A DNA stretch of 24,994 bases, from assembly GCA_036005065.1 (NCBI GenBank), contig DASYQW010000119.1, forward strand, positions 1 through 24,994, read 5' to 3'. Positions 147 to 16,790 of the stretch are shown in pieces. The notes under the pieces are model-generated. The model was not told where the DNA came from. It worked only from the letters and a program-made list of their open reading frames with translations, and did not search any database. Every line of letters begins with the position of its first letter. Positions within the stretch are counted from its first letter, which is position 1. Source of the stretch: Candidatus Methylomirabilota bacterium (lineage in GTDB: Bacteria; Methylomirabilota; Methylomirabilia; Rokubacteriales; DASRDR01). The position numbers were made by a program, and so were the translations under genes.

Positions 147-1034
147 CTACGCCCGCAGGACTGCGCTCGCGAGGCGGGCCGCCACCTCCCGGAGCGCCCG
201 GCCCGTCGGACTCTCGCCGTGCTCGAGGACGAACGGCCGGCCCCGGTCCGCCGCCCCGGCCAGTCGAGGATCGAACGGGATCTGGCCGAGGAAGGGAATC
301 CCGCAGTGCAGGGCCAGGCGCTCGCCGCCCGGGCCGTCGAAGAGGGCGCCGAGGCTGCCGCACTGGAGGCAGACGTAGCCGGCCATGTTCTCCACCAGGC
401 CGAGCAGCGGCGTGCCCGCCTCGCGCGCCAGGGCGATCGATCGGCGGACGACCAGGTGGGAGACCTCCGACGGAATGGTGACGACCACGGCGCCCGTGAG
501 GTCGGGCAGCAGGCCGGCCAGCGTCGGCAGCCGGTCGACGCCGGGCGGGAGATCGAGCAGCAGGACGTCCAGGGCGCCCCATGCCGTGTCGGTCAGGAAC
601 TCGCGCAGGGCGTTGGCCTCCATCGTCCCGCGCCAGGTGTGGGCGTCGGTCTGGGTGGGCGCGTTCCACACGACGGGCGTGTCGTCGGACGGGAGCAGGA
701 GGTCCATCGAGAGGACCCGGATCCCCTCGGCGGACCGCGCCGGCTCGACGCCCGCCTCGGTGACCCGGAGCGTCTGACCGCGCACGCCGAGCATCTTGGC
801 GATCGAGGGCCCATTCAGATCCGCGTCCAGCACGCCGACGGCGTACCCCTCGGCGGCCAGCGCCGCCCCGAGGTTCGCGGTCACCGAGCTCTTGCCGACG
901 CCGCCCTTGCCCGAGACGACGGCCACCGTGCGCCGGATGGCCGCCAGCCGGGCGCGGAGCCGGGCGTGTTGCTCGGCGATCTGGCCGACGATGTTCGAGC
1001 CGCCGTCCCCCTGGATGTCCCGATACCGCTTCAC
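147..1034 (-). CDS. apbC: Mrp/ApbC/NBP35-family Fe-S cluster carrier ATPase
   Basis: 295-aa ORF. Deviant Walker A motif VAVVSGKGGVGKSSVTANLGAAL, the ParA/MinD-like Mrp core, and a C-terminal CLQCG CxxC motif for the bridging Fe-S cluster. The start ATG overlaps the upstream stop (ATGA at 1031-1034). Confidence 0.85.
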   Translation of the reverse strand: MKRYRDIQGDGGSNIVGQIAEQHARLRARLAAIRRTVAVVSGKGGVGKSSVTANLGAALAAEGYAVGVLDADLNGPSIAKMLGVRGQTLRVTEAGVEPARSAEGIRVLSMDLLLPSDDTPVVWNAPTQTDAHTWRGTMEANALREFLTDTAWGALDVLLLDLPPGVDRLPTLAGLLPDLTGAVVVTIPSEVSHLVVRRSIALAREAGTPLLGLVENMAGYVCLQCGSLGALFDGPGGERLALHCGIPFLGQIPFDPRLAGAADRGRPFVLEHGESPTGRALREVAARLASAVLRA

Positions 1035-2035
1035 GGCGCCAGGCCCTCGTCGGAGGTGTCGAGCGGCGCCGCCGACGGGTCCTCGAGGTATGTCCGGAAG
1101 CGCTGCATCAGCTCATGGCCGAGGAAGTCGCCGGATCGGCCCGCCCGCTCGGTCTCGAAGTACCGGCGGATCCGGTCCAGCCGCTCCTGCGCCTCGGGGT
1201 TGAGGCTGACGATGCGGAGCCGCTCCTTGGCGGCGTCGAAGGCGTCGAAGGTGAGCTCGGCGAAGCCGAGCTCCCGGATGCGCTTCACGGCCTTCATCAT
1301 CGCCTGGTTACGGAACCGGGTGAGGAGCGGGGAGGTGATCACACGCGCGCCCAGGCGCCGGGCGCGCCGTTCGGCCGCCTTCCGGATGCCCTCGCGCACG
1401 AACTCGGGCGCGGTCTGGAGCCGCTCCCAGGCGTCGGGCGCCCACTCGACCGGCTCTTCCCGGCCGGCAACCCACACCCGCCGGAAGACTTCCGCGGTGA
1501 CGGCCGACTCGCCGCGTCGCCGGGCCTCGGCCTCCACGTCGCGCTTGAAGAGCAGCATGACGAAGTCCGCCATCATCGGCGGCGTCCTGCCGAGCCGTGC
1601 CAGCAGGAGGGTGTCGGCCTCGGGCGTCCACGGCAGGGGCTCGGCCGGCACCTCCGCCTCGGCCAACCCCTCCGCCTCCCGGATGAGTGCGGGGGTGATG
1701 CGGGAGGCGCCTTGCTCGAGGGCGAGCTCCTCGCAGATCCGCCGGGTGATGGGTCGCATGAACTCCGGGATCGAGGCCAGGAGCGCGTCGGCCTCGGACG
1801 TCCACGGCAGGGCGGGCGGGGCGGCCGTCCCGGGGATCGCGTAGCCGCCGGAGGCGGCCAGTCCCATCATCTCCTGCTTGTAGCGCGTCATCAGCTCGGG
1901 CGTGATGACCGGAATCCCCTCGGCGCGGGCACGCCGCTCGGCCAGCCGCCGCACCATGCCGCGCAGGAAGACCGGCGCACGCTGGAGGCGCTCCTCGGCC
2001 TCGGGGGTCCAGCGGACCTCGCCGGGCGGCCTCAC
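1031..2035 (-). CDS. Protein made of 4-5 tandem PCP_red-like repeats (protochlorophyllide reductase BchB C-terminal-like domain, PF08369-like)
   Basis: Taken from the 499-aa ORF 1031..2530. The N-terminal 165 aa of that ORF is a low-complexity Arg/Pro/Gly run overlapping the 2032..2460 gene in another frame. The real start is probably GTG at 2035..2033, overlapping the upstream TGA (GTGA). Repeats found: WTPEAEERLQRAPVFLRGMVRRLAERRARAEGIPVITPELM, LPWTSEADALLASIPEFMRPITRRICEELALEQGASRITPALI, LPWTPEADTLLLARLGRTPPMMADFVMLLFKRDVEAEARRRGESAVTAEV, WAPDAWERLQTAPEFVREGIRKAAERRARRLGARVITSPLL, LNPEAQERLDRIRRYFE. Confidence 0.7.
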   Translation of the reverse strand: MRPPGEVRWTPEAEERLQRAPVFLRGMVRRLAERRARAEGIPVITPELMTRYKQEMMGLAASGGYAIPGTAAPPALPWTSEADALLASIPEFMRPITRRICEELALEQGASRITPALIREAEGLAEAEVPAEPLPWTPEADTLLLARLGRTPPMMADFVMLLFKRDVEAEARRRGESAVTAEVFRRVWVAGREEPVEWAPDAWERLQTAPEFVREGIRKAAERRARRLGARVITSPLLTRFRNQAMMKAVKRIRELGFAELTFDAFDAAKERLRIVSLNPEAQERLDRIRRYFETERAGRSGDFLGHELMQRFRTYLEDPSAAPLDTSDEGLAP

Positions 2036-2460
2036 GGTGGAAGGTTCCAGCCCGCCCGCGCCACCATCACCGCCGTCGCGAGCGCGATCAGGGCGAAGAC
2101 GGTGGCACCGAGGGACATGGACACCTCGCCTCCCCCGGGCAACGGCACCGTCGGCACGCTCGGGGCACGCGCGACCCGCGCCACGCCGACGACCCGGACC
2201 AGGAGAAACACCGCCAGGAGGCGGGTGAACCAGAGGTAGCCCCATCCGTGCGGCCCGCGGGCGATGAGCCAGGGGAAGAGCACCACGAAGAGGAGGCCGA
2301 GCGTGAAGGCGAAGACGAGGAGCCAGCCCGGCCCCGGCCCGGTCGTGCCACGTGCCCCGACGCCGACCAGGACGAGGTACACGGCGCCGACGAGGTAGAT
2401 CACGCCGTAGATCCGGTACGCGAGGGCCGCCTGACGAAACTTCGCCTCGCGCATCGCCAC
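2032..2460 (-). CDS. Small integral membrane protein (about 4 TM helices), function unknown
   Basis: 142-aa ORF in a different frame from the overlapping 499-aa ORF. Contains four long hydrophobic stretches (IYGVIYLVGAVYLVLVGVGA, WLLVFAFTLGLLFVVLFPWLIA, YLWFTRLLAVFLLVRVVGVA, LGATVFALIALATAVMVA). Lies 6 nt after the radical-SAM stop and is coupled to the downstream gene. Confidence 0.6.
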   Translation of the reverse strand: MAMREAKFRQAALAYRIYGVIYLVGAVYLVLVGVGARGTTGPGPGWLLVFAFTLGLLFVVLFPWLIARGPHGWGYLWFTRLLAVFLLVRVVGVARVARAPSVPTVPLPGGGEVSMSLGATVFALIALATAVMVARAGWNLPP

Positions 2461-2466
2461 GCGGCC

Positions 2467-3831
2467 TCAGCCGGCCGGCGGGGCCGGCGCGGGGCGCGGG
2501 GTAAACGATCGGCCCGGGGTGACTCCCCACTGGGCCCGCACCTCGGTCATGAGGGCCGGCGTGACACGCCCCTGCCCCTGGCGCCGGGCGTACGCCTCGA
2601 CTGCCTGGACGACCATGGCCCGGGCGAAGGCGGGGATGGCGTCGAGACGCGCCCGGGCGGCCGGCTCCCAGGCGAGCGTGAACCGCGCCTCGAGGCCGAA
2701 CGTCTGGGCGGCGGGCAGGCGGAGAATCTCACCACCGTGCCGACCCGGCTGGTACGCGCAGGCCGGATCCTCGGCCAGGTAGTCGCCGGATGTCGCGTAG
2801 GCCCGGCACCGGCAGCCGCCGCAGATCACCTGGAACTCGCACGCTCCGCAGCGGCCGCCCAGCCGCGGCTCCCGGAGGTCCTGGAACACCCGGCCCCGCG
2901 CCCACAGCTCGGCGAAGCTCACCTGACGCAGGTTCCCGGCGCTGACGGGCATGTACGGACAGGGCGTGACGTCCCCCTCGGGGGTGATCCGGCAGTAGTA
3001 CTTGCCGGCCGGGCAGGACCCGTGCGCGTAGTTGGCGAGGAGCGGCGAGCGCGGGTCGAGTTCCCAGAGGATGCGGCGGAAGTGCGGGGCGCATTTGGCC
3101 CGGATGAGAAGGTCGCCGGCCCGGCCCGCCGGCACGCTCCACGGATCCTCCGCGCCCTCGACGGGGGAGGGCCGCGGCGTCGGCCCGGCGCCCACCCCCT
3201 GGACGCGCGCCAGGTAGCCGAGGATCGTCTCGTACTGGGCGGCGGTGATGTCGGTCAGCTGCTCGCCCCGACCCGTGCGGACGAGGAAGAAGAAGTTGAG
3301 GACACGCGCCTGAAGTTCCCGGGCCAGGTCGATCATGGCGGGGATCTCGCCCAGGTTCCAGTCGGTCACGCTCATGTGAATCGAGAAGTCGAGCCCCTCG
3401 GCCCGGAGCGCCTGGGTCGCTCGGACGGCGCCCTGCCAGGCGCCGGGCTGGTGCCGGAAGCGATCGTGCCGCGCGGGATCGATCGAGTCGAGGCTGAGCG
3501 ATGCCCCCTGCACCCCGTGCTCGCGGAGGCGCCGCGCCTGCTTCTCGCGCAGGAGCACGCCGTTGGTGCCGAGGACGACCGTGAATCCGTGGTCGCGCCC
3601 CCGGGCGGCGAGCTCGAAGATGTCCGGCCGGAGCAGCGGCTCGCCCCCGGTGAGGATCAGGAACACATCGGGGTTGACGCGGGCGATGTCGGTCATCACC
3701 CGGCGGCACTCCTCGGTCGAGAGCTCGCCGGACGCGCTCGCGCCCGGCGCCGCGCTCATGTAGCAGTGGGCGCAGAAGAGGTTGCAGCGCTGAGTGAGGT
3801 TCCAGGAAACGGCGTATGCCTTGTACGTCAT
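2467..3831 (-). CDS. Radical SAM/SPASM enzyme of the AhbD/NirJ (heme-modifying, PqqE-like) type with a C-terminal PCP_red-like domain fused
   Basis: 454-aa ORF. CxxxCxxC at aa 16-23 (CNLFCAHC). Motifs LSTEE, LILTGGEPLLRPD and VVLGTNG are typical of AhbD/NirJ-type radical SAM enzymes. A Cys-rich SPASM region follows (CPAGKYYC...CPYM...CGACEFQVICGGCRCRAY). The C-terminal ~70 aa, LAWEPAARARLDAIPAFARAMVVQAVEAYARRQGQGRVTPALM, is a PCP_red-type repeat. There is a GGAGG Shine-Dalgarno 5 nt upstream of the ATG. Confidence 0.85.
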   Translation of the reverse strand: MTYKAYAVSWNLTQRCNLFCAHCYMSAAPGASASGELSTEECRRVMTDIARVNPDVFLILTGGEPLLRPDIFELAARGRDHGFTVVLGTNGVLLREKQARRLREHGVQGASLSLDSIDPARHDRFRHQPGAWQGAVRATQALRAEGLDFSIHMSVTDWNLGEIPAMIDLARELQARVLNFFFLVRTGRGEQLTDITAAQYETILGYLARVQGVGAGPTPRPSPVEGAEDPWSVPAGRAGDLLIRAKCAPHFRRILWELDPRSPLLANYAHGSCPAGKYYCRITPEGDVTPCPYMPVSAGNLRQVSFAELWARGRVFQDLREPRLGGRCGACEFQVICGGCRCRAYATSGDYLAEDPACAYQPGRHGGEILRLPAAQTFGLEARFTLAWEPAARARLDAIPAFARAMVVQAVEAYARRQGQGRVTPALMTEVRAQWGVTPGRSFTPRPAPAPPAG

Positions 3832-3840
3832 TCGATCCTC

Positions 3841-3932
3841 CCCTCTCCCCCTGTGGGGGGGAGAGGGTTAGGGTGAGGGGTCCGGCGACGCGGCGAGACC
3901 CTCACCCCACCCTCTCCCTAGGAGGGAGAGGG
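3841..3932 (-). promoter_or_regulatory. Three consecutive GC-rich stem-loops in the 86-nt spacer between the Usp/PCP_red gene and the radical SAM gene; the first stem of the mRNA spans the Usp gene stop codon
   Basis: Plus-strand stem-loops: (1) 3841-3851 ccctctccccc with 3857-3867 gggggagaggg, a perfect 11-bp stem with loop tgtgg. (2) 3871-3882 gggtgaggggtc with 3897-3907 gaccctcaccc, about 11 bp with one bulge. (3) 3910-3919 ccctctccct with 3923-3932 agggagaggg, 9-10 bp; this arm covers the TAG at 3918-3920. All share a CCCTCTCCC/GGGAGAGGG core. There is no U-tract on the minus strand, so this is not a canonical intrinsic terminator. Confidence 0.4.
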
Positions 3933-5834
3933 AGTCTCGGGCTTTTTGTCGCGGATGTAGCCGGCGATGACCTCGTTCATCGTGTTGCGCGCGTGCCCGA
4001 TCCCCTCCTCGCACATCGCGAGATCGACGACCCCCACCTGCTTCGCGCGCGCGACCCGCTCGATCTCCTCTCGGGTCATGTCCCGCATGAACCCGGCCGG
4101 GACGCGGTTGAGGCGGGCCACCGCGTCTTCCGTCCAGGTGAACTCGCCGGACGGCGCCGCCACCTCTCGGAGGCTGGCCGGCTCGAACCGGGTGTTGGCG
4201 ATGAGGGTCTCCCAGCCGGCGCCCAGCTTGTCCCGGCCCACCGTCTCCTCGATCAGGGGGAAGGCCAGCTCCTTGGTGATCACCGGGATCCGGCGCGAGC
4301 GGGCGTACTTCTCGATTCGGGCCTTGGCCCGCCGGCGGAGGTAGGCGTCGGTGACCTCGCGAAGCCCCTCGCGGGCGTCGTTGGCCCACCGGACCGAGAC
4401 GCCGGGCATCACCTCTTCCTCGGCGATGCCGCCCTCGGCGGTGGCGATCGCCTCGACGACCTGCCGGTCGATGAGCGAGAACGCCTCCGGGCCGGCGCCG
4501 CAGACCGGGCACTTCACCACCGGGTTCGGGCCCTTGACCGCGTAACCGCAGATGGAACAGATGGCCGACACCGGCGCCTCCTCGGCCCGTAGCTTGGCGA
4601 CCGCCAGGTCCTCGGCCATGATCTGCATCTTCTCGGCCAGGCGGCTCGGCATGAAGATCGCCATCGCCTCGTCGATGACCTTGGAGGTGATGACCGTATG
4701 CCCCTGCTCGATGGCGTAGCGCAGGAGCGCCGTCCGGGCGACCCCGGCCACCTGGGCCGGGACCCGCTTCATGCGAGCCTCGGCCTCCTCCGTCCAGGAG
4801 ATGATCTCCTCGGCCTTCACGTCGAGCGGCGGGTAGAACCTCCCGCCGGTGAGGAGGACGTTGCAGGGGGCGAGCCGCAGGAGGTTCTCCGTGTTGGAGC
4901 CGAGGTCGGCCTCGTTCTCGTCCGAGTGGACCCCGACCCGCCCCAGGATCAGGAGCCAGGGGTGCTCCTTCCGGCAAAACTGGAGGAGCTTCTCGAAGCA
5001 CTTCCCGTCGAGCAGCGTGATCGCCAGGTCCACCTCCGCGTCCCGGGCCAGCTTCCGCCCGATCTCGAGGTGCGACTGGTAGATCTTGGCCAGCCCGGTG
5101 TCGATGATCTCCTCGTGGAGCTGCTCCTGCTCCTTGAAGCGGAACACCTTCGAGGCTTTCTCGGAAAGGACGCCGACGATGCCGTTGAACATCGCGTAGT
5201 GGAGATAGGGATCGTAGACGGCGACGGCGTGGAGCGCCCGGCCGAGCCTCTTGGCCAGGGCCACGCCGATCTGGAGTCCCCGGAATGACTGGGGACTCCC
5301 GTCGAGTCCGACCACGATGGCGCCCTGCTGGGCTTCCAGGGGATCGGGGTTGCGAACGACGAGCGTGTCGATCGGCACCCGCCGGACGAAGCGCTCCGTC
5401 ACCGAGCCGAGCTGGCTGTCCCTGACGGCGCCCAGCCCCAGCGCGCCGATCACCACCAGATCGTAGTCCCCGGCCCGGACGTCCTCGATGAGGGCCTTGT
5501 AATGCTTGCCGTCCATCATCCGCCGCTCGAACGGGAGCCCGGCCGCCTCCGCCTTCTTGCCTATCACGTCGAGGTACGAGTCGGAGATGAGCTGCAGGCC
5601 CATCGCGATCAGCGAATCGTGGATCTTCCGCTGGCGCTCGAGCTCCGTCTCATCCTTGTACTCGTCCGGCAGCGTGTACTCCATCTGCTTGAACCGGTAG
5701 TCGTGGAGCCGGGCCGCGTAGACGTGGCAGCCGACCAGCTCGGACCCGAACGCCTTCCCGAGCTCGACGGCCAGGTCGATGGCGCGGTTCGAGTAGTCCG
5801 AGTTGTCGACCGGCACGTAGATCTTCCGGAACAT
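3918..5834 (-). CDS. Multidomain protein: tandem universal stress protein (UspA) domains, PCP_red-like repeat, rubredoxin-like zinc ribbon, then two more PCP_red-like repeats
   Basis: 638-aa ORF. The N-terminal ~300 aa carry two Usp-like alpha/beta halves (IYVPVDNSDYSNRAIDLA...VVIGALG; IVVGLDGSPQSFRGLQIGVALA...HPWLLILGRVG). Then ISWTEEAEARMKRVPAQVAGVARTALLRYAIEQGHTVITSKVI, a PCP_red repeat. Then CSICGYAVKGPNPVVKCPVCG, a CxxC...CxxC zinc ribbon. Then VRWANDAREGLREVTDAYLRRRAKARIEKYARSRRIPVITKEL and FTWTEDAVARLNRVPAGFMRDMTREEIERVARAKQVGVVDL. GGAGG Shine-Dalgarno 5 nt upstream. Confidence 0.8.
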   Translation of the reverse strand: MFRKIYVPVDNSDYSNRAIDLAVELGKAFGSELVGCHVYAARLHDYRFKQMEYTLPDEYKDETELERQRKIHDSLIAMGLQLISDSYLDVIGKKAEAAGLPFERRMMDGKHYKALIEDVRAGDYDLVVIGALGLGAVRDSQLGSVTERFVRRVPIDTLVVRNPDPLEAQQGAIVVGLDGSPQSFRGLQIGVALAKRLGRALHAVAVYDPYLHYAMFNGIVGVLSEKASKVFRFKEQEQLHEEIIDTGLAKIYQSHLEIGRKLARDAEVDLAITLLDGKCFEKLLQFCRKEHPWLLILGRVGVHSDENEADLGSNTENLLRLAPCNVLLTGGRFYPPLDVKAEEIISWTEEAEARMKRVPAQVAGVARTALLRYAIEQGHTVITSKVIDEAMAIFMPSRLAEKMQIMAEDLAVAKLRAEEAPVSAICSICGYAVKGPNPVVKCPVCGAGPEAFSLIDRQVVEAIATAEGGIAEEEVMPGVSVRWANDAREGLREVTDAYLRRRAKARIEKYARSRRIPVITKELAFPLIEETVGRDKLGAGWETLIANTRFEPASLREVAAPSGEFTWTEDAVARLNRVPAGFMRDMTREEIERVARAKQVGVVDLAMCEEGIGHARNTMNEVIAGYIRDKKPETPSPS

Positions 5835-5950
5835 GAGCGCCTCCGGTGTCAGGCCGACAACCGTCGCATCCCGGAGCCGCGGTCGTCGGCGTTACGCACG
5901 AAATCGGCCTTCACCCCACCCTCGGCCTACCGGGTCCGCACCGGTGGAGC

Positions 5951-6322
5951 TCAGCATCCGAAGCGGGCGTCGGTCGGGTCGACGAAATTGTCGAGACTCA
6001 GCCAGAGGCTCTTGCTGTACCGGAAAAACCAGAGCGGGAAGAGGACGGCGAACGTGCCCCAGATCGCGAGCTGCTGCCCGACGGTGAGGCCGAGCCAGGC
6101 GCCCAGCCCGAAGTAACCGAGGAGGGCGATCACCACCGTCGCGCCGTAGTTCAGGTAGATGGCCCCCACGAAGTAGCCCGGCTCGCGCTCGAAGACGAGC
6201 CCGCAGCCAGGGCAGCGCGACCGCATGCGAAACCATCCCTCGAACATGCCGCCGGCGCCACAGCGAGGGCACTGCAGACGGAGGCCCCGACCCAGCAGCC
6301 GCCGTGACCGTGCGAGGTCCAT
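5951..6322 (-). CDS. DUF983-family zinc-ribbon membrane protein (commonly encoded next to cytochrome oxidase genes)
   Basis: 123 aa. An N-terminal CPRCG...CPGCG zinc ribbon is followed by two TM helices (YFVGAIYLNYGATVVIALLGYFGLGAWL; LAIWGTFAVLFPLWFF). This is the typical DUF983 layout. Confidence 0.7.
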   Translation of the reverse strand: MDLARSRRLLGRGLRLQCPRCGAGGMFEGWFRMRSRCPGCGLVFEREPGYFVGAIYLNYGATVVIALLGYFGLGAWLGLTVGQQLAIWGTFAVLFPLWFFRYSKSLWLSLDNFVDPTDARFGC

Positions 6323-6347
6323 CTGCCCACCTCTGGCTGGGGCACAG

Positions 6348-6683
6348 TCAGTGTTTCGCCGGGGCTTCGACCTTCGCCGACTCGGCCGTCTTGTGGTCCA
6401 CGGCGCGACTGTCAGGCATGATGATCAGCACGAGCAGCGTCCCGATGGCGAGCGGGGTCAGAGCGATGTAGGCCAGGGTCCGGGTCTCGAAGCGGAGATG
6501 CATGAAGTACATCGCCACCAGGGCCGCCTTCGAGAGCGCGAGCGCGACCAAGAGCACCCACTTGGTGGGCGGCGGCAGGAAATAGGCGCCGACCTCCAGC
6601 ACCGTCAGTACCGCGAGCCAGTAGAAGACGGCCATGTAGTTCGGGCTCTTGTGGGCGTGTGCCTCAGCCATCGCGTCCCCCAT
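6348..6683 (-). CDS. ctaF: Cytochrome c oxidase subunit IV (prokaryotic COX4_pro/CtaF type)
   Basis: 111 aa. NYMAVFYWLAVLTVLEV...ALSKAALVAMYFMHL matches the bacterial subunit IV consensus (KA.LV..YFMHL). The start is either the first ATG or the ATG 4 codons later (MAEAHAH). Confidence 0.7.
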   Translation of the reverse strand: MGDAMAEAHAHKSPNYMAVFYWLAVLTVLEVGAYFLPPPTKWVLLVALALSKAALVAMYFMHLRFETRTLAYIALTPLAIGTLLVLIIMPDSRAVDHKTAESAKVEAPAKH

Positions 6684-6692
6684 CCCCGGATC

Positions 6693-7310
6693 TCAGAGCA
6701 GGTAGATGAGCGTGAACACCATGATCCACACGAGGTCCACGAAATGCCAGTAGAGTCCGACGATCTCGGTGATCATGTAGTTGTAGCGCTGGTCCTGGAA
6801 GCGGGAGATCGCCGCCCGGACCACCGCCAGGTAGATCACGCCGCCGGTCACGTGGAGCCCGTGGAAGCCCGTGATGATGTAGAAGCTGGCCCCGAAGAGC
6901 GCGGCTCCCCAGGGATTCCCGAAGACTCGCATCCCCTGTTCGATCAGGTGCGTCCACTCGTACCCCTGCATTCCGAGGAAGAGCAGCCCCCCGCCCATGG
7001 TCCATAGCAGGCGGCTCCGCGCCCGCCGCATGTCCCCGCGCTGGATCCACTCGAGCGCCTTGACCATCGTGACGCTCGAGCAGATCAGGATGAAGGTCAT
7101 GACGGCCGGAATGTTGATCCCGAAGTGGACGGCGGGCGGCGGCCAATCCGCGCTGGAAGCCCGGACCGCCCCGTAGGAGGCCAGCAGCACGCCGAACCCC
7201 ACGGCGTCTCCCGCCAGGAAGATCCACATTCCGAGCTTCCCCCAGCTCTCGGGGGTGAGCGGCGACTCGGCCGGCTCGACGGCCGGGTGAGGCAGCGCGG
7301 CTTCAGTCAC
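6693..7310 (-). CDS. ctaE: Cytochrome c oxidase subunit III (5-TM short form)
   Basis: 205 aa. Carries WGKLGMWIFLAGDAVGFG, FYIITGFHGLHVTGGVIYL and LYWHFVDLVWIMVF, the hallmarks of heme-copper oxidase subunit III. GTG start at 7310 with an AAGGAGA Shine-Dalgarno 7 nt upstream. Confidence 0.85.
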   Translation of the reverse strand: MTEAALPHPAVEPAESPLTPESWGKLGMWIFLAGDAVGFGVLLASYGAVRASSADWPPPAVHFGINIPAVMTFILICSSVTMVKALEWIQRGDMRRARSRLLWTMGGGLLFLGMQGYEWTHLIEQGMRVFGNPWGAALFGASFYIITGFHGLHVTGGVIYLAVVRAAISRFQDQRYNYMITEIVGLYWHFVDLVWIMVFTLIYLL

Positions 7311-7345
7311 GGTCTGGTCTCCTTGTAGGCGTCATCCGGCGACCC

Positions 7346-8032
7346 TCACACGAGATAGACGAGGATGTAGAGAATCGGCCACAGAGCCACCACGAAGTGC
7401 CAGTACATCGCGCAGGTCGCCAGGCTCACGTACTCCCGTGGCGTGTAGCGGCCGCGCGCCGCCCACGCCAGGACGATCAGGAGCCAGGTCAGGGCCCCCA
7501 GGACGTGCGCGCCGTGGGTTCCGATCAGCGTGTAGAACGTGCCGCCGTAGATTCCCGAAGACGCGGTCAGGCCGAACCCGACCAGGCGGATCCACTCGGC
7601 GCCCTGCACCGCCAGGAACAGCGCGCCGAGGCCGGCGGTTCGGGCGAGGCCGCGGACCAGGCCGCGCTGGTCGCCCTGGCGGACGGCGCGGAGCGCGCGA
7701 GCCAGCGTATAGCTCGAGCCGATCAGGACCAGCGTGTTGACGGCCGTGACCCCCACCGGAAGTCGCGGCTGACCGGGAGGCGGCCACACGCTGGCGCCGA
7801 GGCGCAGGACCAGGAAAGCGGCCACCAGCCCGCCGAACAGGACCGTCTCTCCCGTGAGCAGCATCAGCATCCCGAGGCGGGCGTTCGAGTACGGGGGATA
7901 CGCCTCCGGCCCGGATCCGCCGTCGTCCCCGTTCCCGCGGGGCGGCGGGACCGGCGGCTGCCAGTCGCGGCCCAGCTCGCGGCTCGGGGGCCCGCCGACA
8001 CGCCGCTGGAGGTCGGGCTCGATGATCGGCAT
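7346..8032 (-). CDS. Second cytochrome c oxidase subunit III-family protein (paralog with a Pro/Gly-rich N-terminal extension)
   Basis: 228 aa. Carries GMLMLLTGETVLFGGLVAAF, FYTLIGTHGAHVLGALTWL and AMYWHFVVALWPILYILVYL, the same family signature as ctaE but divergent. The N-terminal ~50 aa are a proline-rich low-complexity run. Confidence 0.75.
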   Translation of the reverse strand: MPIIEPDLQRRVGGPPSRELGRDWQPPVPPPRGNGDDGGSGPEAYPPYSNARLGMLMLLTGETVLFGGLVAAFLVLRLGASVWPPPGQPRLPVGVTAVNTLVLIGSSYTLARALRAVRQGDQRGLVRGLARTAGLGALFLAVQGAEWIRLVGFGLTASSGIYGGTFYTLIGTHGAHVLGALTWLLIVLAWAARGRYTPREYVSLATCAMYWHFVVALWPILYILVYLV

Positions 8033-8039
8033 CGGTCTC

Positions 8040-8177
8040 TCAGTTGCGCACCCAGATCACGACGATGGAGACGATCACGAGGAACACGATCAAGGCGACG
8101 AGCAGCCGCGCGGTCCGGCGGTTCCGCTCGGCCAGAGTCGGCTCCGTCGCCTGCCCGCGGTCGATCAGCGCGGGCAT
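8040..8177 (-). CDS. 45-aa single-TM protein (not in the ORF track); possible small oxidase-associated subunit
   Basis: Hand-translated: ATG 8177..8175 to TGA 8042..8040 gives MPALIDRGQATEPTLAERNRRTARLLVALIVFLVIVSIVVIWVRN, a charged N-terminus followed by one clean TM helix. The stop lies 7 nt before the ctaE-like start, so it is coupled into the operon. It may be a chance ORF. Confidence 0.35.
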   Translation of the reverse strand: MPALIDRGQATEPTLAERNRRTARLLVALIVFLVIVSIVVIWVRN

Positions 8178-8213
8178 CGCTCACCCCGTTGGCCCGGCCG
8201 AGCACGCAGAGCG

Positions 8214-8376
8214 GCGACGGGGATCGGCACGGCCCTGAACTCACGGCCGGGCCGAGACCCGAGCAGCCCTAGGACGCAGGCCGGAGCCGGCCCGAGGCGT
8301 ATGCCGCATACGTTGAGGGCTGGCGACGGCCGAGGACGACGGGCTGCGACGGGTATCGGCACGGCCGTCAGCTCAC
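8214..8376. repeat. 31-nt imperfect direct repeat (27/31 identical) flanking a 132-nt spacer that contains a small palindrome; the second copy overlaps the ctaB stop codon
   Basis: 8214-8244 gcgacggggatcggcacggccctgaactcac versus 8346-8376 gcgacgggtatcggcacggccgtcagctcac. A palindrome, cgtatg-ccg-catacg, lies at 8298-8312. The repeat also shows in the spurious ORF translations as a repeated AVPIPVAA / RRATGIGTA. Confidence 0.6.
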
Positions 8377-9282
8377 CTTGTCGAGCGCCATCAGCACCAG
8401 CAGTATCGGCAAATACAGCACGGAGGCCAGGAGCAGCCGCCGGGCCGCCGGCGGCGAGGGCGCGACCGCCTGCGCCATGCCACAGGCCAGGAAGAGCCCT
8501 CCCAGGGTCAGAGCGCCGAAGAAGTACACCGCGCCCGCGAGCCCGATCAGCGTCGGCAGGAGCCCCACCGCGAGGAGGGCGAGACACCCCGCCACGATCT
8601 GGCGCTCGGTGCTCGCGCCGTCGGGGTCGACGACGGGCAGGACGCGGATGCCGGCCCGCGCGTAGTCCTCACGGTAGAGCCGGGCGATGGCCAGCGTGTG
8701 CGGGAGCTGCCACAGGAACAGGATCGCGAACAGCACCGCCGCGCCCGGCCCCAGGTCGCCGCGCGCCGCCACCCAGCCCGTCACGGGGGGCAGGGCGCCC
8801 GGGACAGCGCCGATCACCATGCACAGCGGCGTGACGCGCTTGAGCGGCGTGTAGGCGAAGAGGTAGAGGCCCACCGTCGCTACCGTCACCAGGACGCTGG
8901 CAGGCCCGACAGTCAGGGCAAGGTAGGCGAGTCCCGCCGCCGTCGTCAGCGTCCCGAAGACGAGCGCCTCCCCCGGCTGCAGGCGACCGTCGGGCAGGGG
9001 TCGGCCACGCGTGCGCTGCATCCGCGAATCGACGTCCCGCTCGAGGAACTGATTGAGCGCCAGCGTGCCGGCCGCCGCCAGTGCGGTCCCGAGCAGCGTG
9101 TGGGCGAGGCGGACGTAGTCCTGGCCGCCGACCGAGCCCAGGTAATAGCCGACGAACGTCGTCACCAGGACCATGAGGACGACCCGGGGCTTCGTCAACG
9201 TCACGAAGTCGGCGAGTCGCCGGCGGGCGCCGGCGAGAGCCACGGCCGGCGCCCCCGGCAGCGTCCCCGTCCGCGAGATCAT
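8368..9282 (-). CDS. ctaB: Protoheme IX farnesyltransferase (heme O synthase)
   Basis: Taken from the 451-aa ORF 8368..9723. The first ~147 aa of that ORF are Arg/Gly/Ala low-complexity and overlap ctaA in another frame. The real start is ATG 9282..9280 (MISRTG...), overlapping the ctaA TGA (ATGA). UbiA-family motifs are present: LTKPRVV, NQFLERDVDSRMQRTRGRPLP, YTPLKRVTPL. Confidence 0.85.
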   Translation of the reverse strand: MISRTGTLPGAPAVALAGARRRLADFVTLTKPRVVLMVLVTTFVGYYLGSVGGQDYVRLAHTLLGTALAAAGTLALNQFLERDVDSRMQRTRGRPLPDGRLQPGEALVFGTLTTAAGLAYLALTVGPASVLVTVATVGLYLFAYTPLKRVTPLCMVIGAVPGALPPVTGWVAARGDLGPGAAVLFAILFLWQLPHTLAIARLYREDYARAGIRVLPVVDPDGASTERQIVAGCLALLAVGLLPTLIGLAGAVYFFGALTLGGLFLACGMAQAVAPSPPAARRLLLASVLYLPILLVLMALDKVS

Positions 9283-10223
9283 GCCGCCACCCCCTGCGCG
9301 CCCGGCCCCGCCGGCAGCTGCGCCCGGGCCTCGGCCGCTTCGGCCCCGCCGAGCCGCCCGAGCGTGAGCACGAGCATGACCGCCCCGCCGAGGAGCAGAG
9401 CGGCGGTGGCCCGGTGGGCGACCGGCAGCACCAGGCCGCCGAGGACACCGCCGGGCACGGCGAACCCCGTGAAGCGCGCGACGTAGGCGCCGAGCCCGAG
9501 CCCGAGCTGAAGCGCGAGGAGGCTCAGCAGGGTCCCGGCCGGCCAGGCGAGCGCCGCCCGCGCCCGGTGCCGAGCGAGCACGCGTAGCGCGAGGAGCGCC
9601 ACGGCGAGCGTCGCCACGACGGCGCCGCCCAGGTGCCAGTCGATCCGGCCGGCGTGCGTCGTCAGGGCACCCAGCACGATCTGGAGATAGAGCGCGGCGG
9701 TCGCCGCCACCGCGAGCCCCCACAAGCGGCGGGCCTCGGCCGCCGGGAGGGGCGCCACCGGCGCTCGCCAGGCCGGGGCGGTGAAGACGGCGAGCGCCAC
9801 CGTCAGGGCGAAGAAGGCCTGAGCCAGGCAGCCGTGGACGATCGCCAGCGTATCCCGCAGGAGGAGCACCCGCAGCCCGCCGAGCAGCCCCTGCCCGCCC
9901 ACCAGGACGACGGCCGCCAGCCCGAGCAGCCGGAGCCGGCCCTGCCGGTCGCCGAACCAGAGCACGGTCGCCAGGCCGAGCGTCAGGAACCCGACCAGTG
10001 CCCCCAGGAGACGATGACTGTGCTCGTAGAGGACGCCCCCGACCATCTGCGACCAGGGATAGAGAAACATGTTGTGGCCGAACGTGGTCGGCCAGTCGGG
10101 AACCGCCAGCGCGGCCCCGGTGTTCGTCACGAGCCCGCCGGCCACGATCAGCACGAGCGTCGCGCCGACGGTGACGAGCGCCAGGCGGTGCGCCCAGCGC
10201 ATGGGCGCCGACGCCGTCGTCAC
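9279..10223 (-). CDS. ctaA: Heme A synthase (CtaA/COX15 family)
   Basis: 314 aa, about 8 TM helices. Conserved His residues sit in the TM helices (YEHSHRLLG, IVHGCLAQAFF, TTHAG). GAAGGA Shine-Dalgarno upstream. Its position between ctaD and ctaB supports the call. Confidence 0.8.
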   Translation of the reverse strand: MTTASAPMRWAHRLALVTVGATLVLIVAGGLVTNTGAALAVPDWPTTFGHNMFLYPWSQMVGGVLYEHSHRLLGALVGFLTLGLATVLWFGDRQGRLRLLGLAAVVLVGGQGLLGGLRVLLLRDTLAIVHGCLAQAFFALTVALAVFTAPAWRAPVAPLPAAEARRLWGLAVAATAALYLQIVLGALTTHAGRIDWHLGGAVVATLAVALLALRVLARHRARAALAWPAGTLLSLLALQLGLGLGAYVARFTGFAVPGGVLGGLVLPVAHRATAALLLGGAVMLVLTLGRLGGAEAAEARAQLPAGPGAQGVAA

Positions 10224-10244
10224 GGCAATTCCTTCACGGAACTC

Positions 10245-12002
10245 TCAGTGCGCGCGCGAGGACGCGCCCGCTGTGGTGAGCCGTCGCGTCTGGGGCAGGT
10301 AGTCCTCGGGTACCTCCGGCGAGCTGTACTCGTAGGGCCCGCGGTAGACGACGGGCAGGGCAGCGCCCCAGTTCCCGTGGGGTGGAGGCGACGGCGCCGT
10401 CCACTCCAGCGTGTTGGCGCTCCAGGGATTCAGGGGCGCCTTCGGCCCTTTGAAGAGGCTCCAGAGGAAATTGATCACGAACGGGATCTGGCCCAGGCCG
10501 AGCAGGAAGGCGCTGACGCTGATGAAGATGTTCCAGGGCTCGGTCCACGTCAGGAACTCGTACTGCATCGGGTTGTAGATCCGGCGCATCATGCCGCCCA
10601 CCCCGAGGATGTGCATCGGGAAGAAGACGAAGTTGAAGAACACGAACGTCGGCCAGAAATGGAGCTTCCCGAGCGTGTCGTTCATCATCCGGCCGAACAT
10701 CTTCGGGAACCAGTAGTAGATGCCGGCGAACGCCCCGAAGATGGAGCCGCCGAAGACCACGTAGTGGATGTGGGCCACGATGAAGTAGGTGTCCTGGATG
10801 AAGATGTCCACCGGCGTGGAGGCCATGAAGATCCCGCTGAGCCCCCCGATCACGAACATCGACACGAAGGCCAGCCCGTTCAGCATGGGAACGGTGAACC
10901 GGATGTTCCCGCCCCACAGGGTCCCCAGCCAGTTGAACGTCTTGATGGCCGAGGGGACGGCGATGACCATCGTCGTGATCATGAAGGAGGTCCCGAGGGC
11001 CGGGTTCATGCCGCTCACGAACATGTGGTGGCCGTACACGACCCAGGAGAGGAAGGCGATGCCGATGATGGAGAAGGCCATCGCGCGGTAGCCGAAGATC
11101 GGCTTCCGGGCGAAGACCGAGAGCACGTCGGAGGCGATCCCCATCGCCGGCAGGATCAGGATGTAGACCTCCGGATGACCGAAGAACCAGAAGAGATGCT
11201 GCCAGAGCAGGGGCTCCCCGCCCCCGGCGGGATTGAACCAGTTGGTTCCGAAGACGCGGTCGAAGAGCAGCATGGCGACAGCCGACGTCAGGACCGGGAG
11301 GGCGAGCAGGAGGAGGATGGCCGTGATGAACATCGCCCAGATGACCAGCGGCATCCGGAACATCGTCATGCCGGGCGCGCGCATGTTCACGATCGTCGTG
11401 ATGTAGTTGATGGAGCCCATCATGGAGGAGACGCCGAGGACGAACAGGCTGATGCACCAGAGGTTCTGGCCCCAGTTGACGCCGGAGTACTGGGGGATGG
11501 CCGAGAGCGGGGCGTACGAGGTCCACCCGGCGGCGGCGTGCCCGCCCTCCACGAAGAAGCCGGCCAGCATCAGGAGCCCGGCCAGGGCCCCCGCCCAGAA
11601 GGAGAGCATGTTCAGCCGGGGGAACGCCATGTCCCGCGCCCCGACCATCAGGGGGATCAGGAAGTTCCCGAACGCCCCCGCCAGGATCGGCATGATCACG
11701 AAGAAGATCATGATGGTGGCGTGCATCGTGAACATCATGTTGTAGACGGCGGGCGAGATGACCCCCTCGCTGTCGGGCCAGATGAGCCGCCCGACCAGGG
11801 GCACCGGGGTCTCCGGCCACGCCAGCTGCCACCGGAGGAAGAGCGCCAGCAGGCCGCCGATGACCATCATGAAGAGGCCCAGGAAGAGGAACTGGCGGGC
11901 GATCATCTTGTGGTCGGTCGAGAAGATGTAGGTCCGCACGAAGCCCAGCTCGTGGGCATGCACGTCGTGCGCGCTGGCCGTCGCGGCTGCTGGATGCGCC
12001 AT
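10245..12002 (-). CDS. ctaD: Cytochrome c oxidase (aa3-type heme-copper oxidase) subunit I
   Basis: 585 aa. Carries WFFGHPEVYILILP, GMDVDTRAYF-like regions, HHMF and YVVAHFHYV-type motifs (IVAHIHYVVFGGSIFG). The subunit I signature is unmistakable. Confidence 0.95.
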   Translation of the reverse strand: MAHPAAATASAHDVHAHELGFVRTYIFSTDHKMIARQFLFLGLFMMVIGGLLALFLRWQLAWPETPVPLVGRLIWPDSEGVISPAVYNMMFTMHATIMIFFVIMPILAGAFGNFLIPLMVGARDMAFPRLNMLSFWAGALAGLLMLAGFFVEGGHAAAGWTSYAPLSAIPQYSGVNWGQNLWCISLFVLGVSSMMGSINYITTIVNMRAPGMTMFRMPLVIWAMFITAILLLLALPVLTSAVAMLLFDRVFGTNWFNPAGGGEPLLWQHLFWFFGHPEVYILILPAMGIASDVLSVFARKPIFGYRAMAFSIIGIAFLSWVVYGHHMFVSGMNPALGTSFMITTMVIAVPSAIKTFNWLGTLWGGNIRFTVPMLNGLAFVSMFVIGGLSGIFMASTPVDIFIQDTYFIVAHIHYVVFGGSIFGAFAGIYYWFPKMFGRMMNDTLGKLHFWPTFVFFNFVFFPMHILGVGGMMRRIYNPMQYEFLTWTEPWNIFISVSAFLLGLGQIPFVINFLWSLFKGPKAPLNPWSANTLEWTAPSPPPHGNWGAALPVVYRGPYEYSSPEVPEDYLPQTRRLTTAGASSRAH

Positions 12003-12082
12003 CGTCCTTTATCCCCCTCGAACGGTTGCCCGCGCGAGTGCGCCAGAGTCGGCGGTTTCGGGCGAATCGGGTGGAGGCCGCA

Positions 12083-12739
12083 CTAGGAGGGCCACTTCTC
12101 CTTGAGCCACTGCTGGTACTCTTCCGCGGTGTGGACGAACAGGAAGCCCTTCATCCCCGAGTGCCCGAACCCGCAGAGCTCGGCACACGGGATCTCGTAT
12201 TTGCCGGGCTTCGTCACCTCGACCCACTGGTGGATCACGCGGCCCGGCACGGCGTCCTGCTTGAACCGGGCCTGGGGGATGAACACGCTGTGGATCACGT
12301 CCCGCGAGGTCAGGTGCAGGATGACCGGCTTGCCGACCGGGACGTGGACCTCGTTATCGAAGGTCTGGTCGTCCTCGGTCTCGAACTTCCCGTCGGGCCC
12401 CGGGTAGGTCACCTCCCAGTTGAACTGCTTGGCCGTGATCCGGATGTGGATGTCGGACTCGGGAAGCCGGCTCTTGATCCGGGTCCAGCCGGGAACCGAG
12501 AGGAAGGTGAGGATCACCAGGATGAGCGCGGGGACGATCGTCCAGACGATCTCGAGGGTGGCGTTCCCGTGGGTGTAGGTCGCCCGCCGTCCCTCCCGGT
12601 GGCGGTAGGCCACCAGGAAGATGATCATGGCGCCCGCCACCAGGATGAACGTCACGCCGGTGATGTAGTAGATGAGGTAGAAGAGCCAGTCGATTTCGGC
12701 TCCATAGGTGGAGATGTTCTCCGGCAGCCACCTCATCAT
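12083..12739 (-). CDS. ctaC: Cytochrome c oxidase subunit II (CuA centre, no fused cytochrome c domain)
   Basis: 218 aa. Two N-terminal TM helices, then a cupredoxin fold with HSVFIPQ...CAELCGFGHSGM, which gives the CuA ligands H, C, C, H, M. The protein ends right after the CuA domain, so this is aa3-type rather than caa3-type. Confidence 0.9.
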   Translation of the reverse strand: MMRWLPENISTYGAEIDWLFYLIYYITGVTFILVAGAMIIFLVAYRHREGRRATYTHGNATLEIVWTIVPALILVILTFLSVPGWTRIKSRLPESDIHIRITAKQFNWEVTYPGPDGKFETEDDQTFDNEVHVPVGKPVILHLTSRDVIHSVFIPQARFKQDAVPGRVIHQWVEVTKPGKYEIPCAELCGFGHSGMKGFLFVHTAEEYQQWLKEKWPS

Positions 12740-13607: not shown

Positions 13608-13662
13608 GGGAACTCCTTCCTCCTCCGTGAACGATCGGTTGAGCCCCGGCCGCGGCTGGCCC

Positions 13663-15918: not shown

Positions 15919-15926
15919 GACGCGAC

Positions 15927-16787: not shown

Positions 16788-16790
16788 GGC

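Follow-up and report, generated by a model that had tools for sequence, protein, structure and literature searches.

The subject of this analysis is a group of five genes at one end of a 24,994-nucleotide stretch of DNA from Candidatus Methylomirabilota bacterium (NCBI GenBank assembly GCA_036005065.1, contig DASYQW010000119.1, positions 1 to 24,994), which we refer to as the window. The contig has a G+C content of 70%, and third-position GC marks out a single long run of minus-strand genes that extends from position 18731 down to 147. The last five genes of this run lie exactly where a first-pass annotation had placed them (Table 1). They encode UspF, i.e. a fusion of two universal stress protein (Usp) domains with copies of the PCP_red domain; a radical SAM/SPASM enzyme with a fused PCP_red domain; a predicted protein with four transmembrane helices (4-TM protein); a stand-alone protein with four PCP_red copies (4x PCP_red protein); and a P-loop ATPase of the Mrp/NBP35/ApbC type. 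The module genes show a strong coding signal (third-position GC, GC3, of 0.91-0.94) and deep conservation, and the domains proposed for them (PCP_red in three proteins, radical SAM/SPASM, tandem Usp and the Mrp-type ATPase) are borne out by Pfam. Since relatives of these genes are found beside terminal-oxidase genes in hundreds of species, the module probably supplies or handles oxidase heme. In our favoured reading, which we put at a probability of about 45%, the region would be a cytoplasmic heme-supply and heme-handling module of terminal-oxidase biogenesis, consisting of an AhbD-type, oxygen-independent heme b synthase and its PCP_red partners.

PCP_red domains and the proteins that carry them

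Three of the five proteins match the PCP_red profile (Pfam PF08369, gathering threshold 32.5 bits), namely UspF with 83.9 bits (E-value 8e-24), the radical SAM enzyme with 44.2 bits (2e-11) and the 334-amino-acid stand-alone protein with 142.8 bits (3e-42). In a PDB sequence search the latter retrieved nothing but C-termini of BchB and two nuclear magnetic resonance structures of stand-alone PCP_red domains, 2KRU and 2L09. The repeats are thus PCP_red domains, as the first-pass annotation had recognised, and not helical repeats of the TPR or HEAT kind. Its count of at least ten copies was too high. When the seven clear copies were made into a hidden Markov model (HMM), a search with it added a single further copy, the degenerate third one of the stand-alone protein (residues 134-187, i-Evalue 1e-6), which carries an insertion. 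No other copy was detected with this model, be it in the C-terminal 90 amino acids of that protein, which match no family, or elsewhere. The total is therefore eight, with three copies in the Usp fusion, one in the radical SAM enzyme and four in the stand-alone protein, for which a fifth had been considered. Nor are the three genes consecutive, because the 4-TM gene separates two of them. In the gene of the stand-alone protein, the second and third copies have a 35-nucleotide stretch in common that is 91% identical (1604-1638 and 1778-1812), which points to a recent internal duplication.

PCP_red is the C-terminal part of the B/Z subunits of the tetrapyrrole enzymes DPOR and COR, and it caps the bound pigment in DPOR. 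To our knowledge, a role of the domain has been established in these two enzymes only. The repeats of the window resemble the C-terminal domain of BchB/ChlB (PDB 3AEK, 2KRU, 2L09) in their length of ~45 amino acids and in the W-T-x-E-A...P-x-F-V-R signature. They differ in that they are detached from the nitrogenase-like catalytic domain, reach four copies in a single protein of the window and six elsewhere in the UspF family, and are joined to Usp, rubredoxin-like or radical SAM domains in organisms that are not phototrophic. None of the window proteins qualifies as a DPOR or COR subunit: a Pfam search gave no Oxidored_nitro match in any of them, and the BchB equivalog models reach 55-101 bits against cutoffs of 490-912 and cover only their last ~50 positions. 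Known until now only as a lid in enzymes of chlorophyll biosynthesis, PCP_red occurs on a large scale in non-phototrophs as well. Full-text literature searches for PCP_red and PF08369 returned nothing relevant.

UspF is annotated in databases as a 'universal stress protein'. Pfam identifies two Usp domains (PF00582, 133 bits in two stretches, E-value 1e-38), PCP_red and a rubredoxin-like RUBY_RBDX domain, and the Usp part is of the tandem ATP-binding type. The glycine motifs G130/G133/G143 and G298/G301/G312 are invariant in 99 sequences of the UspF family. Both Usp domains thus keep the ATP-binding motif and are predicted to bind a nucleotide. Foldseek matched the AlphaFold2 (AF2) model of UspF, which has a predicted local distance difference test (pLDDT) score of 81.7, to the tandem Usps TTHA0350 (with bound ATP, E-value 2e-16) and Rv2623. 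With these two and with UspE the protein shares the fold and the ATP-binding glycine motifs. Unlike them, it continues into PCP_red and rubredoxin-like domains, and its Usp domains carry inserts, modelled as helical hairpins, in which H44, H72, H212 and H240 are invariant. Further family-invariant residues are R47, F48 and E52 in the insert of domain 1, and F216 and Q236, plus H303, in domain 2. We consider that H44, H72, H212, H240 and H303 might together bind a metal or heme at the interface of the pseudo-dimer.

UspF is the signature gene of the module and defines a large family that has no name as yet. An exhaustive search over representatives at 50% identity gave 349 clusters at an E-value of 1e-30 or better. 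Usp and PCP_red domains were found in 34 of 34 diverse members sampled, the rubredoxin-like domain in 11 of these 34, and the number of PCP_red copies per family protein ranges from 0 to 6. One member of 1147 amino acids (P0253) combines an Oxidored_nitro domain and PCP_red with the Usp-Usp-PCP_red architecture. Its arrangement is BchB-like, and this protein could be an evolutionary bridge to the BchB-type enzymes.

The Usp domains raise the question whether the link to respiration is of a purely regulatory nature. In that case the radical SAM protein would be an ordinary anaerobic heme synthase and UspF a stress protein of the hypoxia type, whose PCP_red domains sense the tetrapyrrole or redox status and tune the expression or assembly of the oxidase, but carry no substrate. 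The first 330 amino acids of UspF do form a typical tandem Usp of the ATP-binding kind, comparable to Rv2623, which is induced by hypoxia, and UspF also occurs beside oxidases where a radical SAM gene is lacking. Moreover, Usps that flank respiratory clusters of Nitrospira marina rise at low oxygen (PMC8115632), where they are not identified as UspF. A sensor accords less well, however, with a PCP_red copy number that varies as widely as it does in the family, and with the presence of PCP_red on the enzyme and on a small Mrp-paired protein (see below), which would rather suggest a domain shared for handling or docking. In addition, Pfam gave no DNA-binding or signalling output domain in the UspF of the window or in the family members sampled. 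We regard the regulatory explanation as unlikely.

The 454-amino-acid protein encoded downstream of UspF matches Radical_SAM (88.5 bits, E-value 7e-25), SPASM (39.6 bits, 6e-10) and PCP_red. It has the cluster-binding features of an AhbD-type enzyme, i.e. the CX3CX2C motif (C16-x3-C20-x2-C23 in the sequence CNLFCAHC) and a SPASM domain. Across 64 orthologues, this motif and eight cysteines of the SPASM region (273, 280, 291, 328, 331, 337, 340 and 342) do not vary. AhbD itself belongs to the radical SAM/SPASM enzymes and forms heme b from coproheme in an oxygen-independent reaction. In agreement with the AhbD/NirJ-like assignment of the first-pass annotation, the best NCBIfam matches are NirJ2 (TIGR04055, 304.7 bits) and AhbD (TIGR04545, 299.6 bits). 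They are followed by an unnamed sister family (253 bits), by NirJ, AhbC and NirJ1 (157-200 bits) and by peptide and cofactor maturases with at most 150 bits. Both of the leading models have a cutoff of 500 bits, which the window enzyme does not reach. The ranking is unchanged for orthologues from Nitrospira (327 bits for NirJ2, 316 for AhbD) and a proteobacterium (304 and 300 bits), which reach ~150-200 bits for NirJ/AhbC and at most 150 bits for peptide maturases. Since all orthologues tested score below the equivalog cutoffs of 500, the enzyme is to be placed, on these profile scores, in the clade that acts on tetrapyrrole side chains, nearest to the coproheme decarboxylases, but in a distinct subfamily. 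Several orthologues bear the JGI/IMG label 'AdoMet-dependent heme synthase'. The enzyme shares with AhbD and NirJ2 the radical SAM core and enough SPASM cysteines for two auxiliary clusters. It differs from them by extra sequence inserted between the radical SAM core and SPASM, by the PCP_red domain that follows beyond the last position of the NirJ2 and AhbD models (326 and 339 positions, respectively), and, compared with AhbD, by its location in oxidase operons together with UspF and Mrp rather than with ahbABC. The PDB holds no AhbD or NirJ structure; PqqE, SkfB and anSME are nearest by sequence and fold, and with the AF2 model of the enzyme (pLDDT 66) Foldseek returned generic SPASM enzymes only.

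The ATPase has the features of the Mrp/NBP35/ApbC iron-sulfur carriers, namely a NUBPL-type P-loop domain (PF10609, 255.4 bits; Pfam ParA/NUBPL E-value 7e-76), the deviant Walker A sequence GKGGVGKS and a CLQC motif. It falls short of the equivalog level, with 254.9 bits for MrpORP (cutoff 450) and 184.5 bits for ApbC (cutoff 348). P-loop fold, deviant Walker A and CxxC motif are common to all these carriers, including MrpORP. The ATPase of the module is set apart by the lack of any Pfam domain beyond the ATPase core and by its consistent pairing with a PCP_red protein. The 142-amino-acid 4-TM protein matches no Pfam or NCBIfam family above threshold. The idea that it is a diverged form of the CopD/HemJ-like proteins of Poribacteria and Nitrospira was rejected after a profile-profile comparison (hhalign probability 0.3%).

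Distribution of UspF and its gene neighbourhoods

In a scan of one genome per GTDB species, which used a seed alignment of the closer UspF members, relatives of UspF were detected at no fewer than 551 matching stretches (>=551). We kept 80 of these as loci with 10-kb flanks (loci are designated L001 and so forth). They come from Rokubacteria, more distant Methylomirabilota, Poribacteria, Latescibacterota, Tectomicrobia, TA06, Calditrichia, Rhodothermales, Krumholzibacteriia, Planctomycetota and Deferribacteres. Exact-protein look-ups contributed 11 further loci and added Nitrospira, Alpha-, Beta- and other Proteobacteria, and Nitrospinota. As one of them (L089) was retrieved through its radical SAM gene and lacks UspF, the set comprises 90 UspF loci. 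Neighbours were scored in 88 loci by a search with the window proteins and by clustering of the neighbouring open reading frames (ORFs); two proteobacterial loci (L087 and L088) were fetched after the search set had been built and are undercounted in these numbers. The carriers of the module amount to hundreds of species and include nitrifying bacteria (Nitrospira, Nitrospinota), symbionts of sponges (Poribacteria), Rokubacteria, which are abundant in soil, and some of the Proteobacteria.

The most frequent neighbour of UspF is Mrp (69/88 loci), followed by CoxIII (61), CtaB (56), the radical SAM-PCP_red enzyme (53), CtaA (52), CoxI (49), a small PCP_red protein of ~176 amino acids that is usually encoded just after Mrp (also 49), SCO1/SenC (38) and a CopD-like small membrane protein (21). 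Corrected for the two late additions, 72 of the 88 loci have cox/cta or bd-like/cytochrome c genes within 10 kb. Beyond the scored loci, oxidase genes are present in the nitrospinotal L090 and absent from L091. Many of the loci without oxidase genes lie on short contigs; the well-flanked ones are L001, L027, L029 (Planctomycetota), L081 (Deferribacteres), L084 (Nitrospira) and L091. The linkage to heme A and oxidase genes noticed in the window was thereby checked in other genomes, and it recurs across many phylum-level lineages. Oxidase assembly factors, i.e. SCO1/SenC and DUF420/CtaM, recur as neighbours as well, and in Poribacteria and Proteobacteria the SCO1 gene immediately precedes UspF.

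The five genes at the end of the run do not persist as a unit. A full-length match to the 4x PCP_red protein (at least 150 bits) was obtained among the scored loci only in L004, L005, L006 and L021, all of them closest Rokubacteria, and L030 has a shorter relative of 260 amino acids (81 bits) at the equivalent position. In other Rokubacteria the protein is missing or replaced by a cation-efflux protein. One such replacement is seen in L001, a rokubacterial relative whose UspF is 81% identical to that of the window: a Cation_efflux (CDF) protein is encoded at 13632-14366, between the small TM gene and Mrp. The 4-TM protein is likewise Rokubacteria-specific apart from two more distant Methylomirabilota, with homologues in 22 loci, 20 of which belong to close Rokubacteria. 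As the 4x PCP_red and 4-TM proteins are lineage-specific, the conserved set consists of UspF, the radical SAM-PCP_red enzyme, Mrp and the small PCP_red protein.

In some lineages there are additional genes. Between the radical SAM enzyme and UspF, three small and conserved ORFs (~260, 220 and 125 amino acids) occur in Latescibacterota, Rhodothermales and Krumholzibacteriia (L052 7971-9872, L072 7889-9909, L061 7702-9763), and the calditrichial L036 (8905-9959) has the ~125-amino-acid ORF together with a different one of ~200 amino acids. None of them matches Pfam, and judging by their placement they are further members of the module in those lineages. In Nitrospira sp. Kam-Ns4a (L084) a trio of UspF, radical SAM and CopD-like genes is preceded, within 7225-9807, by a methyl-plastoquinone methyltransferase MpqE (400 bits, cutoff 335), and also by a B12-binding radical SAM protein similar to slr0320. 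In L091 a HmuY (heme-binding) domain protein (14600-15251) is encoded a few genes after UspF, Mrp and the small PCP_red protein, at a locus where oxidase genes are absent.

Two kinds of oxidase accompany the module. Besides the cox genes, a bd-like/cytochrome c cluster with an EB_dh domain adjoins UspF in Latescibacterota, Calditrichia, Rhodothermales, Methylomirabilis, Proteobacteria and Nitrospinota (L030, L035, L036, L046, L047, L052, L072, L073, L079, L085-L088, L090). In the rokubacterial loci, as in the window itself, this cluster is found next to the cox genes, on the side away from UspF. The family termed OR-N has a CydA-like subunit without a quinol site and is encoded in operons with alternative electron donors such as cytochromes c (bioRxiv 10.1101/2021.01.16.426971). 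In the window, the bd-like gene product gives a weak match to Cyt_bd_oxida_I (39 bits, cutoff 26.2), and its gene is followed by two cytochrome c genes, one of which encodes the EB_dh domain. By this context the cluster at 13663-18731 looks like the OR-N type. In the proteobacterial L087 and L088 the annotated genes comprise an OR-N cluster, cytochromes c and SCO1, and L088 additionally has a radical SAM gene and an Amino_oxidase gene. The presence of the SCO1/SenC copper chaperone in these two clusters hints at a copper site.

The proteobacterial gene order is two-component system, bd-like oxidase, cytochromes c, SCO1, UspF, radical SAM-PCP_red enzyme and an FAD-dependent oxidase of 462-474 amino acids. 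In three of the four proteobacterial loci such a HemY-family oxidase is encoded directly beside the radical SAM enzyme, on the same strand in L085 and L086 and on the opposite strand in L088. It scores 226 (L085) and 244 bits (L086) against TIGR00562 (HemY, cutoff 97.85), and for L088 the assignment is a Pfam Amino_oxidase call only.

Proposed heme supply for terminal oxidases and the alternatives

The affiliation of the enzyme with the AhbD/NirJ2 clade, its fusion to PCP_red, the HemY neighbour in Proteobacteria and the linkage to CtaB, CtaA and oxidase genes together suggest a heme b synthase that functions in oxidase biogenesis. From the domain identities, the family relationships and the conserved synteny we infer the following steps. 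The radical SAM/SPASM enzyme would act as an oxygen-independent, AhbD-type decarboxylase on an iron tetrapyrrole, with the conversion of coproheme into heme b being the likeliest reaction. Its fused PCP_red domain would cap or hold the tetrapyrrole, as in the BchB subunit of DPOR. UspF and the other PCP_red proteins may be nucleotide-regulated tetrapyrrole-binding partners, which could pass the substrate or the product along in the direction of CtaB/CtaA and the apo-oxidases. The rubredoxin domain, in those members that have one, may shuttle an electron that is needed or released by the radical SAM reaction, and the dedicated Mrp ATPase is a candidate for maturing or repairing the three [4Fe-4S] clusters of the enzyme. 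The first-pass annotation had proposed a tetrapyrrole handling or modification pathway, with PCP_red as a putative carrier, Mrp as a candidate cluster donor and Usp as a possible stress input. The tetrapyrrole part of this proposal is supported by the enzyme clade, by PCP_red and by the oxidase linkage, but the simplest reading is ordinary heme b synthesis and not a new modification. Concerning the pathway context, AhbD stands alone in organisms with the coproporphyrin-dependent pathway (PMC13564367), and Nitrospirota carry CgoX of that pathway (PMC10740692).

The module has its neighbourhoods, and by inference also the process in which it takes part, in common with the oxidase biogenesis factors CtaA, CtaB, CtaM/DUF420, SCO1/SenC and the CtaG/CopD-like proteins. 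None of these factors has a PCP_red, Usp or radical SAM domain, whereas the module proteins do. Literature searches yielded no published oxidase assembly scheme that involves PCP_red, Usp or radical SAM proteins, and no paper emerged when Usp and radical SAM were searched together with heme A/oxidase clusters. The paper that defined OR-N (bioRxiv 10.1101/2021.01.16.426971) and the one on the terminal oxidases of Manganitrophus mention no radical SAM or Usp partners. Our literature searches did not turn up a description of the module, in line with the earlier statement that no characterised system of this composition is known. The parts come from known families; their architecture and conserved placement appear to be undescribed. 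The delivery of heme to membrane oxidases and its insertion are poorly understood, as is heme synthesis when oxygen is scarce but still respired. The module provides concrete, testable candidate genes for both.

Several observations weigh against heme supply. Genes for ferrochelatase, ChdC, HemN and the Ahb proteins are not recurrent in the neighbourhoods, and when 138 other neighbour ORFs from 16 diverse loci were scanned for heme biosynthesis genes, DUF420 alone recurred. The window itself has no heme biosynthesis gene beyond the heme O/A genes ctaA and ctaB. The adjacent HemY was seen in Proteobacteria only. In L087 UspF lies beside an oxidase cluster with no radical SAM gene nearby, in L089 the radical SAM gene is surrounded by housekeeping genes, away from UspF and oxidases, and the UspF/radical SAM pair of Nitrospira has no adjoining oxidase. 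With ~300 bits against a cutoff of 500 for both AhbD and NirJ2, the enzyme could have a different substrate, and its AF2 model, with the pLDDT given above, is too poor to tell whether PCP_red lies over the active site. Finally, our literature searches gave no test of tetrapyrrole binding by PCP_red outside DPOR and COR.

It is conceivable that the product is not heme b. The module may make or install a special modified heme for the active site of the OR-N and/or aa3 oxidase through a new side-chain modification, in which the radical SAM enzyme would be aided by UspF, Mrp and, in some lineages, HemY. The enzyme does form its own subfamily below the AhbD and NirJ2 cutoffs, and the module is linked to oxidase operons and not to general heme biosynthesis genes. 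In Proteobacteria, where heme is normally made by the protoporphyrin pathway, the OR-N operons nevertheless contain an extra set of HemY, radical SAM enzyme and UspF. Furthermore, the widespread 'bd-like' (OR-N) oxidases of the Nitrospira type have an uncharacterised cofactor content. A common precursor such as heme b better fits the fact that two unrelated oxidase types are accompanied by the module, some radical SAM copies are found among housekeeping genes, and there is no direct evidence for a new product. Altogether, a special heme appears quite unlikely. A bolder proposal, which we also regard as unlikely, would see UspF, the radical SAM enzyme, Mrp and the small PCP_red proteins as an unrecognised but widespread cofactor-maturation machine. 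It might provide a non-standard heme for the oxygen site, or it might be an ATP-gated relay from heme synthesis to insertion. Built from DPOR-derived tetrapyrrole-capping domains, such a relay could serve both the OR-N bd-like and the A-type heme-copper enzymes.

The frequent company of Mrp and the copper-related neighbours would also be compatible with a system that has no tetrapyrrole role at all. PCP_red might dock the NifH/MinD-like Mrp for the delivery of iron-sulfur clusters or copper to the oxidase, or the SPASM enzyme might have a peptide or a subunit of the oxidase as its substrate. Mrp nearly always comes with a PCP_red protein as its partner; SCO1 and the CopD-like TM protein are common neighbours, to which the cation-efflux protein of L001 may be added; and many SPASM enzymes are peptide maturases, including the closest solved structures, PqqE, SkfB and anSME. 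On the other hand, the sequence scores are ~150 bits higher for the AhbD/NirJ2 clade than for the best peptide maturases, Proteobacteria have a HemY-family enzyme next to the radical SAM gene, and the only established role of PCP_red is that in DPOR and COR. A conserved precursor-peptide gene is not evident, a point on which no dedicated search was made, and small conserved ORFs without Pfam match do occur near UspF in some phyla. We consider this explanation improbable and retain the supply of heme b to terminal oxidases as the favoured reading.

Organisation of the window

Upstream of the module the order of genes was confirmed as bd-like gene, two cytochrome c genes, CoxII, CoxI, CtaA, CtaB, two CoxIII genes, CoxIV and DUF983 (Table 1). 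According to their Pfam families, the genes from CoxII to DUF983 encode an A-type heme-copper (aa3-type) oxidase and the heme O/A synthesis proteins. The module follows on the same strand after a gap of 116 nucleotides, in which a scan for terminator- and promoter-like sites found none. Because of this arrangement, co-transcription of the module with the cox genes is plausible.

Table 1. Features of the window with their positions, strand and the evidence for their assignment (aa, amino acids).
Feature	Position	Strand	Evidence
Cytochrome bd subunit-I-like protein	16791-18731	-	Pfam
Dihaem cytochrome c	15927-16787	-	Pfam
Multihaem cytochrome c with EB_dh domain	13663-15918	-	Pfam
CarboxypepD_reg-domain protein	12903-13679	-	Pfam
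CoxII, CoxI, CtaA, CtaB, 45-aa small ORF (unannotated), CoxIII (two genes), CoxIV, DUF983 (in order of transcription)	5951..12739	-	Pfam
UspF (Usp-Usp-PCP_red fusion, 638 aa)	3918-5834	-	Pfam
UspF, Usp domain 1 (aa 1-161), G-x2-G-x9-G-S motif	5352..5834	-	Pfam, AF2, conservation
UspF, Usp domain 2 (~aa 170-330), G-x2-G-x10-G-S motif	4845..5327	-	Pfam, AF2, conservation
UspF, PCP_red copy 1 (aa 345-393)	4656..4802	-	Pfam, HMM
UspF, rubredoxin-like CxxC-x12-CxxC domain (aa 426-452)	4479..4559	-	RUBY_RBDX, 31.4 bits (cutoff 26.5)
UspF, PCP_red copy 2 (aa 481-530)	4245..4394	-	HMM
UspF, PCP_red copy 3 (aa 565-615)	3990..4142	-	HMM
GC-rich hairpin directly 3' of the UspF stop (~24-bp stem, no U-tract)	3859..3918	-	Minimum free energy -54.2 kcal/mol, z = -2.8
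Radical SAM/SPASM-PCP_red enzyme (454 aa)	2467-3831	-	Pfam
Radical SAM enzyme, fused C-terminal PCP_red (aa 386-435)	2527-2676	-	Pfam
Predicted 4-TM protein (142 aa)	2032-2460	-	No family above threshold
Stand-alone 4x PCP_red protein (334 aa)	1031-2035	-	Pfam
Stand-alone protein, PCP_red copy 1	1868-2017	-	HMM
Stand-alone protein, PCP_red copy 2	1664-1810	-	HMM
Stand-alone protein, PCP_red copy 3 (degenerate)	1475-1636	-	HMM
Stand-alone protein, PCP_red copy 4	1301-1450	-	HMM
Mrp/NBP35/ApbC-type P-loop ATPase (295 aa)	147-1034	-	Pfam

Within the module, translational coupling of the genes through GTGA and ATGA overlaps had been suggested. GTGA overlaps are indeed present between the 4-TM and 4x PCP_red genes and between the latter and Mrp, but ATGA overlaps are not, and the other junctions are spaced, by 6 nucleotides between the radical SAM and 4-TM genes and by 86 nucleotides between UspF and the radical SAM gene. 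The longer spacer contains a hairpin, which may be a transcript-stabilising, attenuating, mRNA-processing or REP-like (repetitive extragenic palindromic) element. Its 13-nucleotide core GAGGGTGGGGTGA is found a second time at 5911-5923 (minus strand), in the spacer between DUF983 and UspF. An Rfam scan of the window gave nothing relevant.

Three minor features were noted outside the module. An unannotated ORF of 45 amino acids with a single transmembrane segment (MPALIDRGQ...VIWVRN; 8040-8177, minus strand) lies 7 nucleotides upstream of the first CoxIII gene, and a relative locus has a 39-amino-acid ORF at the equivalent position. Just upstream, the spacer between CtaB and CoxIII contains two direct repeats of 50 nucleotides (8195-8376) that are 82% identical and 132 nucleotides apart. 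On the plus strand, an SPFH/flotillin gene (19441-21051) harbours four tandem repeats of 33 nucleotides (11 amino acids, rich in Ala and Glu) at 20565-20729.

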